Shown piece after piece: positions 44,446 through 45,258 of a DNA stretch of 64,000 bases. This DNA comes from Escherichia phage YUEEL01, in the sequence record NC_054935.2. One strand, written 5' to 3'. How positions within the stretch are numbered: position 1 is the stretch's first letter; every line of letters starts with the position of its first letter. Made by a program: the position numbers and the translations under genes. The notes under the pieces were generated by a model. It was not told the DNA's origin, did no database searches, and saw only the letters and a program-made list of their open reading frames with translations.

Positions 44446-45258
44446 TTATTCGACCTTCTTAAATTTGCAATTGTCAAAATGGTATCTTTTAGCGTGAGAC
44501 TTATCCATGATTTTAGAACAGTGCGGGCATTTTAATTTTTCTCTGCTATGAGATACACCCGTGATAACTTTGCATTTATCGCCGTGGTATTTTCCATAAT
44601 TTCCTACATCACATATAATTCCGCAATGCGGGCAATTTCTCTTTTCGACTTTTGCAAGACTCTTAGATAGTTTATTTAAATACTTTTCGTATTTTTGGGG
44701 GTCACTTTTAAGCTCAGACCAAAAATCTTTCATCTGTTTAGAACATCTTTCTTTATATTCTAACATTTCGTTTTCTGATAACGATTCCAAATATTTCACT
44801 GAAGCTTTTCGAATATTTGCATTAACTTCTTTTCTCTTTTCATCTGTCCATAAAGATTTAGTTTTTTTAATGCCTTTTCCGGCTTTTTTAATTCGTTCCT
44901 TCTTTAAATTTGGTGGTAGATTTGCCCAAAACTTTTTAGTGGTTTCTGATCTAATTTTGGATGTTTCCTCTTTAATCCATCCGTAATCTTTACTTACAAT
45001 TCTCTGCTCTTTTGTACCCTTGGAGAATTTTATTAAGGCATAAGCCATTTCAGAATTTCGGTGTATTTTAAAAAGAAGCTCATGTGCAAAATAGTGTTCT
45101 CTTGCTGTCAGTAAAACCTTGTTTTCTCTAGAATCATCTCCTCCCATGGATTTTGGGACAATATGGTGTGATTCTGTATAATAATCTAATTTTTTCTTAT
45201 TAAGACCTCTTTTAAGAGATCTTTCTATAAGAGAGTCGTAAATTTTAGTATAATTCAT
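44446..45258 (-). CDS. HNH-family homing-type endonuclease with C-terminal Cys-rich (zinc-finger-like) repeats
   Basis: 270 aa; N-terminal HNH signature [29 protein letters not shown]; Lys-rich linker; two CPHC...H..C repeats at C-terminus; sits exactly between gp13 stop (ATGA overlap) and gp14 start (2 bp gap). Confidence 0.8.

Follow-up and report, generated by a model that had tools for sequence, protein, structure and literature searches.

The 64,000-nucleotide stretch of the Escherichia phage YUEEL01 genome analyzed here (record NC_054935.2, referred to as the window) comes from a T4-like phage of the genus Tequatrovirus and holds, at the junction of neck genes 13 and 14, a 270-codon open reading frame (ORF) that is very probably a free-standing T-even homing endonuclease gene (HEG) of the Mob-type HNH class. 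A presence/absence polymorphism, the domain architecture of the encoded protein, its intact catalytic residues, a population-genetic signature of spread and the linkage of a short recoded block of gene 13 to the element were all observed directly. On the minus strand, the genes of this region run gp12, wac, gp13, the 270-aa ORF, gp14, gp15, gp16 and gp17, and the three features at the center of the argument are the following.

44446..45258, minus strand: 270-aa ORF ending in TAA, assigned to a free-standing homing endonuclease of the HNH class (ORF list, Pfam HNH_4, PHROG 655, 44 phage copies)
45255..46184, minus strand: gene 13, neck protein, upstream flank; 309 aa, 99% aa identity to T4 gp13, annotated so in relatives
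43674..44444, minus strand: gene 14, neck protein, downstream flank; 256 aa, 100% aa identity to T4 gp14

As described in an earlier note on this DNA, the ORF encodes an HNH signature, a Lys-rich middle and two CPHC...H...C repeats, and its ATG (45258-45256) shares bases with the gene 13 TGA (45257-45255) as ATGA at 45255-45258. The note placed the stop 2 bp from the gene 14 start; the gene 14 ATG, at 44444, does begin two bases after the TAA (44448-44446), and the gap itself, a trivial matter, is 1 nt (44445). With a start/stop overlap at one end and a 1-nt spacer at the other, there is no room for any intron sequence between the two protein genes. The note's statement that gene 13 abuts gene 14 in T4 proved accurate: in T4 strain 147 the junction is empty, gene 13 ending in TTT GGA ATT TTG GTA GGT TAA with a single T before the gene 14 ATG, which makes the net insertion in the window 809 nt in an otherwise intact junction. 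Neither a paralogue of the ORF nor any other ORF with an HNH or GIY-YIG motif was found in the 64-kb window. A chance reading frame is ruled out because the product scores above the Pfam HNH_4 cut-off, matches PHROG 655 with E = 1e-52 and evolves with a dN/dS of 0.08–0.23.

Megablast with the 13-HNH-14 segment retrieved 506 phage records, 44 of which span the ORF, and tblastn with the protein returned the same 44, all with a product 96–98.5% identical to that of the window and all with the gene between the neck genes; the next best phage match after these carriers is only 35% identical. Carriers span several Tequatrovirus species (T6, fps2, effone and others), and alignment of the 13–14 junctions reveals a precise empty site in T4, T2, the RB-series phages and most other isolates, amounting to about 91% of the Tequatrovirus records. 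The site is thus vacant in T4, as the note had it, and the finding it had named as fatal to the homing interpretation, an orthologue in T4 and most relatives, did not emerge, the ORF being present in 44/506 records. The T6 copy is T6ORF154, annotated as a "hypothetical protein identical to ... HNH endonuclease". Together with some 40 GenBank orthologues it represents the same gene as that of the window, with 96–98.5% aa identity, an identical position and an identical recoded end of gene 13, while the window allele differs in having four private amino acid changes and an L14/HP3-like backbone. Many of the recent carrier isolates label the gene "homing endonuclease" in GenBank, by similarity only. 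In one T6 record (AP018814.1, around 89545-90383) the feature at the position of the gene 13 end carries the label "aerobic NDP reductase large subunit", which looks like an annotation slip. Petrov et al. counted three mob-like and one other HNH HEGs in T6 in 2010, without giving locations (PMC2993671). The gene, already deposited in T6 and about 40 other genomes and in many of them correctly annotated, is therefore not new as a sequence or in kind.

Compared among seven HEG+ phages, the ORF has a mean pairwise nucleotide diversity of 0.87%, against 5.2% for gene 13 and 3.5% for gene 14. For a dispensable ORF, diversity 4–6 times lower than that of the essential genes flanking it argues for recent entry into those backgrounds. 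Among intact copies dN/dS is 0.08–0.23, indicating purifying selection. Presence of the ORF does not track backbone relatedness: in a 24-kb comparison of structural genes, the backbones nearest to that of the window (ES21, L14, ESh29 and HP3, 99.0–99.1% identical) are without it, and HEG+ records are at most 98.7% identical. Broken, frameshifted copies occur in four or five records, including F1, FN, SHFML-26 and CJY920. The gene thus shows the population-genetic marks of an HEG, being younger than its flanks, distributed independently of phylogeny and represented by decayed copies. In F1, FN and SHFML-26 a single A is missing from the A7 run at ORF nt 391, which could reflect real decay or a homopolymer sequencing error. 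In phage F1 (L015 1773-2584) the split leaves a 153-aa HNH-only product, which falls into a separate protein cluster (P0005, 154 aa).

Insertion of the ORF goes together with a rewritten 3′ end of gene 13, which reads GTG GGA GTG TTA GTT GGA TGA in HEG+ and TTT GGA ATT TTG GTA GGT TAA in HEG- genomes, so that the gp13 tail is VGVLVG in the former and FGILVG in the latter.

45255..45275, minus strand: recoded last 21 nt of gene 13, including the ATGA overlap (45255-45258); probable disrupted target site

Site-by-site comparison of 7 HEG+ with 10 HEG- Tequatroviruses, with two further HEG- junctions inspected by eye, showed gene 13 to be polymorphic at 145 sites and gene 14 at 79. Perfect association with the element is confined to eight of these sites (gene 13 nt 910, 912, 916, 918, 921, 924, 927 and 929), and at every other polymorphic site the allele-frequency difference is 0.6 or less. 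The eight changes, seven substitutions plus TAA>TGA, are found in 44/44 HEG+ and 0/~460 HEG- records, and a 30-nt probe of the HEG+ gene 13 end matches exactly 44 records, all of them ORF carriers. A shared ATTTT(G/A) run is destroyed in all four HEG+ lineages, which calls for an explanation, as does the occurrence of a recoded block of this kind in two lineages. The note's suggestion that the flanking genes may carry the recognition site thereby gains indirect support. On the usual explanation for HEGs, the recoded block would overlap the recognition or cleavage site and protect the carrier; given that polymorphisms beyond the 21 nt are unlinked to the element, the cut is probably made very close to the insertion point. 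The likely recognition/cleavage site is thus confined to some 20 bp of terminal gene 13 sequence, and we propose GGAATTTTG as the core motif of the target. Two further interpretations of the block were considered and dropped. Perfect linkage as proof of selection for immunity was withdrawn, seven mismatches in 18 nt beside an 809-nt heterology being inseparable by homologous recombination, and recoding for the sake of the ATGA overlap only was rejected on the grounds that two of the eight changes suffice to create it.

A second footprint may lie immediately upstream, where the window was compared with the HEG-minus phage L14.

45276..45678, minus strand: divergent gene 13 patch (nt 507-909), candidate co-conversion tract, window vs HEG-minus phage L14

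Across the 11.7 kb upstream of the element the two phages are 99.76% identical, with 28 mismatches, 15 of them within gene 13 nt 507-882. The two phages do not differ at all over gene 13 nt 1-479, and on the other side the first downstream mismatch lies 511 nt into gene 14. We consider this patch of about 425 nt, found on the gene 13 side only, a probable one-sided co-conversion tract. Further along the same comparison, mismatches cluster at window positions ~39450-42950 (10–26 per 500 nt across genes 15–17/18) and, 10.5–11.5 kb downstream, at 33000-34000 (46+18 near prohead-core/scaffold genes, where the 24-kb segment ends downstream); these downstream patches are typical T-even mosaic recombination, unrelated to any endonuclease gene in the window.

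In a large protein collection, the nearest non-identical homologues, at 51–57% identity, come from three divergent T4-like metagenomic contigs, and in all three the gene sits directly upstream of a gp14 homologue 69–79% identical to that of the window. The 57%-identical orthologue fills the 13/14 junction of a Shewanella T4-like contig, and the junction is empty in Thanatos-1, a relative ~99% identical to that contig (flanks 99.2–99.6% identical), which makes this a second, independent filled/empty pair from a different host order. Here, too, the match between the two is lost 22 nt ahead of the gene 13 stop, the final ~21 nt being recoded from TTT GGT ATT TTA ATT GGC TAA in the empty to ATG GGA ATA ATT ATT GGA TGA in the filled genome. 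Profile-guided scans of JGI metagenomes and IMG/VR added one close orthologue (a single contig, present in each collection), along with some 160 distant relatives. Among the 160 fetched loci the distant relatives (~30% identity) never lie beside genes 13/14, the sole 13/14-adjacent loci in that set being two entries for one 98%-identical Tequatrovirus contig, and the site preference therefore belongs to the 13/14 lineage. A junction pattern scan of IMG/VR found 3 loci only. In two divergent HEG+ contigs (L008 1-190 and L006 1-40) the endonuclease starts 9–10 nt past the gene 13 stop, without overlap (..TAA/TGA tttaagtat ATG), behind a T4-like gp13 tail, FGIL(I/L)G; junction architecture thus varies between sub-lineages.

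Orthologues at the same junction as far away as Shewanella T4-likes are what one would also expect of an old resident, that is, of an ancestral, vertically inherited T-even gene that was repeatedly deleted and not gained by homing. We regard this as highly improbable. All HEG-minus genomes examined share a clean junction and a different, conserved gene 13 end, which independent deletions would not recreate; moreover, the flanks are much more diverse than the ORF, presence of the ORF is independent of backbone relatedness and near-identical filled/empty pairs exist in two genera. The predicted layout of the encoded protein is given below.

44926..45258, minus strand: Mob-type HNH (beta-beta-alpha-Me) nuclease domain, aa 1-111; catalytic H31/H32, N46, H55, H59
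44650..44925, minus strand: Lys-rich linker, helical throughout, aa 112-203; probably DNA-contacting repeats of a degenerate NUMOD3-like kind
44572..44634, minus strand: zinc finger 1, CX2CX12HX3C, aa 209-229 (C209, C212, H225, C229); from motif search, conserved in all 13/14 orthologues
44467..44529, minus strand: zinc finger 2, CX2CX12HX3C, aa 244-264 (C244, C247, H260, C264); from motif search, invariant in the 71-member family

The protein scores 25.6 bits against Pfam HNH_4 (gathering cut-off 22) and matches PHROG 655, "homing endonuclease", from end to end (E = 1e-52). Over aa 1-111 its identity is 46% with MobD, 44% with MobE and 50% with the free-standing HNH protein of phage G8 (G8_00060), the gene for which lies between gene 55 and alpha-gt; the Mob comparison covered these three proteins. 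The C-terminus diverges from those of the Mob proteins. In the alignment of the 71-sequence family the invariant columns are Y7, E29, H31, H32, G40, N46, H55, H59, L62, C244, C247, H260 and C264. The catalytic residues of the HNH domain are accordingly intact in the window copy as judged by alignment, and the loss of catalytic His/Asn that the note had held out as a sign of an inactive remnant is not seen. An AlphaFold2 model built from the same alignment (mean pLDDT 93.6) has a beta-beta-alpha core, a series of long helices spanning 90-203 and, at the end, a pair of small beta-beta-alpha fingers. Conserved H-N-H residues, a profile score above threshold and the beta-beta-alpha fold together place the protein in the HNH (beta-beta-alpha-Me) superfamily. 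In a PDB sequence search the HNH motif residues align with the HNH motifs of a group II intron maturase and of Cas8-HNH, and structure searches gave local HNH and zinc-finger matches only, apart from a match of the linker to a helical DNA-binding repeat (STPR). No solved structure with the whole architecture was found in the structure searches or in the PDB sequence search, where the best match was a weak local HNH hit at E 0.076. Pfam reported no NUMOD3 in the window protein, though many of its homologues carry one, and the linker is for this reason called NUMOD3-like by inference only.

Set against known systems, the protein combines two kinds of relative, and from its sequence we classify it as a Mob-type HNH protein with I-TevIII-type tandem zinc fingers. 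With MobD and MobE it shares an N-terminal HNH domain (44–50% identical over ~111 aa) and the same initial MNY.KIY motif. T4-type MobE also contains NUMOD3-like repeats, and its single C-terminal CPHC...H...C finger is homologous to the second finger of the window protein. As is characteristic of Mob genes, the ORF is free-standing between two conserved genes and sporadically distributed. The note's "mob/seg-like" therefore stands in its first half, the seg (GIY-YIG) enzymes being a different family. Differences from MobE and the Mob type are also clear: the mobE locus is nrdA/nrdB, early/middle genes, whereas ours is a late structural operon; there are two zinc fingers here instead of one or none, with only 33% overall identity to MobE; no internal terminator was found in the window ORF; and the linked block here lies right at the insertion, within 21 nt of it, in contrast to the MobE nick some 120 nt into nrdB (PMC2790892). 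In the MobE system, too, polymorphisms near the cut site separate HEG+ from HEG- genomes (PMC2790892). I-TevIII of RB3 and RB10 is of nearly the same length (269 vs 270 aa) and has the same order of N-terminal H-N-H, long linker and two CX2CX12-13HX3C fingers, at 211-231 and 242-263 compared with 209-229 and 244-264 here. The finger region of RB10 I-TevIII (211-266) is 37% identical over 60 aa (E 2e-6), and finger 2 of the window protein is homologous to the second I-TevIII finger; the HNH domains gave no significant BLASTP match, so that only the finger region aligns. In I-TevIII of RB3, Robbins et al. found that the fingers (C211/C214 and C242/C245) bind zinc and DNA and carry the dimer interface, and that the enzyme makes a double-strand break 14–16 bp upstream of its insertion site (PMC1865063), a distance that matches the 21-nt recoded block described above. 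I-TevIII differs in residing inside the self-splicing nrdB group I intron, with nrdB as target, while the window gene is free-standing. The comparisons suggested in the note were thus productive for MobD, MobE and the I-TevIII fingers, but I-HmuI shows no detectable sequence or fold match to the window protein.

The intact residues bear on a further explanation, namely that the ORF is an inactive, HEG-derived passenger that cuts nothing and persists by linkage to two essential genes. Decay is expected after spread in HEG life-cycle theory, and the frameshifted copies in F1, FN, SHFML-26 and CJY920 fit this course, as do the four private substitutions in the window copy; MobE activity, for its part, has been hard to demonstrate in vitro (PMC2790892). 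Yet all catalytic and zinc-ligand residues of the window copy are intact, the private changes all lie outside the HNH motif and fingers, dN/dS is 0.08–0.23 among intact copies, and diversity 4–6 times lower than in the flanks implies recent spread. We therefore consider a dead passenger unlikely. Purifying selection would also fit an accessory gene kept for the benefit of the phage and not self-propagating, either as an interference weapon against the neck genes of competitors or as an aid to packaging or head completion, a task that HNH proteins encoded next to cos-phage terminases perform. With gp16/gp17 three genes downstream, its place in the late neck/terminase operon would suit such a role, and homing endonucleases favor linked markers competitively according to literature as cited in PMC13096335. 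Against it, ~91% of close relatives lack the gene, T4 and T2 with their normal assembly and packaging among them, and the T4-type terminase gp17 has, by annotation, its own nuclease. The cos-phage terminase HNH proteins of the HK97 gp74 type offer no better parallel: genes 14 and 15 separate the ORF from gp16/gp17, 91% of close relatives do without it, and its best family matches are homing endonucleases of the Mob kind, not terminase-associated HNH proteins. Interference, moreover, is compatible with homing, being the same act seen from the phage's side. An accessory role of this kind appears improbable, more so than inactivity, and a homing endonuclease remains our preferred assignment.

How such a gene would be expressed can be read in part from its surroundings. 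On the coding strand between 40499 and 52585 no late promoter of the form TATAAATA was found, nor was there a terminator-like hairpin on that strand in or near the ORF, and sigma-70-like matches are at chance level. Having no late promoter or terminator of its own, the ORF presumably rides late read-through transcripts, and the ATGA overlap suggests translational coupling to gene 13. This resembles mobE, which is promoterless and translationally coupled, its start overlapping the upstream stop as UAAUGA at nrdA (PMC2988022, PMC2790892). The recoded block creates a Shine-Dalgarno-like GGGAG 10 nt upstream of the ORF ATG. At its other end the element appears to supply gene 14 with a new signal.

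44454..44460, minus strand: AAGAAGG in the last ORF codons, 9 nt ahead of the gene 14 start and probably its substitute ribosome-binding site; function inferred

This AAGAAGG probably stands in for the ribosome-binding site that T4 has in the end of gene 13, and orthologues likewise end purine-rich ahead of the gene 14 ATG. Over the whole window the TATAAATA motif occurs 22 times against 9.7 expected (none of 100 shuffles reaches 22), mostly on the minus strand, consistent with a region of late structural genes. The only terminator-like hairpin of the region, at 44620-44632, is on the plus (non-coding) strand, where 1 was found and 1.4 expected by chance; it arises because palindromic CCGCATTGCGG encodes the CPHC of zinc finger 1.

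Taken together, the data lead us to propose the following course of events. The ORF, without a promoter of its own, would be read from the late transcript of genes 13 and 14 and translated by coupling to gene 13 termination at the ATGA. On co-infection with a relative whose junction is empty, the protein would bind the 13/14 junction through its two zinc fingers and the helical linker, and the HNH domain may then nick the empty allele, in the manner of MobE, or cut both strands as a dimer, in that of I-TevIII, within the last ~20 bp of gene 13. Recombination-dependent repair of the T4 type would copy the HEG along with the attached 21-nt recoded gene 13 end and a variable stretch of flank. The HEG+ allele itself would be immune, its site being split by the insertion and altered by seven substitutions in 18 nt, and the new gene 14 ribosome-binding site in the last codons of the element would keep the essential neck genes expressed.

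Several points tell against this interpretation or parts of it. The divergent patch of gene 13 beside the element could be explained by ordinary T-even mosaicism, and similar divergent patches lie 1.5–5 kb downstream in the comparison with L14. Linkage of the recoded block is no proof of selection for immunity, because proximity alone would yield perfect linkage. Two of the four HEG+ lineages (L006 and L008) retain the Phe codon and a T4-like gp13 end, which makes the exact target positions uncertain. The four private changes in the window copy (I107T, S115P, Q120K and G200S), none of them in the HNH motif or the fingers, also count on this side, and the 10-nt spacing between GGGAG and the ATG is long. 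Finally, our literature searches returned reviews and papers on MobE, I-TevIII and SegB but no study of the 13/14 endonuclease.

A more specific proposal can be put forward tentatively, as a possibility we would not rate as probable: the 13/14 lineage may be a free-standing counterpart of I-TevIII, a dimeric, double-zinc-finger HNH enzyme making a double-strand break ~15 bp upstream of the point at which it is itself inserted. The enzyme would recognize the conserved codons that specify the C-terminal end of gp13 (PPFGIL(V/I)G-stop, nucleotide motif GGNATTTTR), fidelity to this target would have kept it at the one junction from Escherichia to Shewanella phages, and the gp13 end would have been rewritten from FGILVG to VGVLVG or MGIIIG in each genome entered.

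Free-standing HEGs between essential T-even genes are textbook knowledge, and no concept is changed by the present case. What the analysis adds is a population-genetic case for recent mobility, the 21-nt recoding as a candidate target and immunity determinant, and a site conserved across phage genera. The window offers a clean natural example of an HEG in circulation, with a 21-nt "left arm", a near-isogenic empty backbone (L14/HP3) and a probable co-conversion tract, and the pattern is replicated independently in the Shewanella phage pair. The likely recognition/cleavage site is narrowed to some 20 bp of terminal gene 13 sequence. The joining of a Mob-type HNH domain to I-TevIII-type tandem fingers bears on the question whether Mob proteins act as nickases or make double-strand breaks. 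The 13/14 junction is also flagged, for phage engineering and for therapy genomics, as a site where marker exclusion may bias recombinants.

One observation concerns the neighboring junction. In the window the gap between genes 14 and 15 is only 41 nt (43633-43673), and in many other T4-like genera the 14/15 junction holds a different Mob-like HEG (L006 1621-2217; KpV477, LC53, phiR1-RT and F48); HEGs thus seem to have landed in the neck-gene cluster repeatedly.

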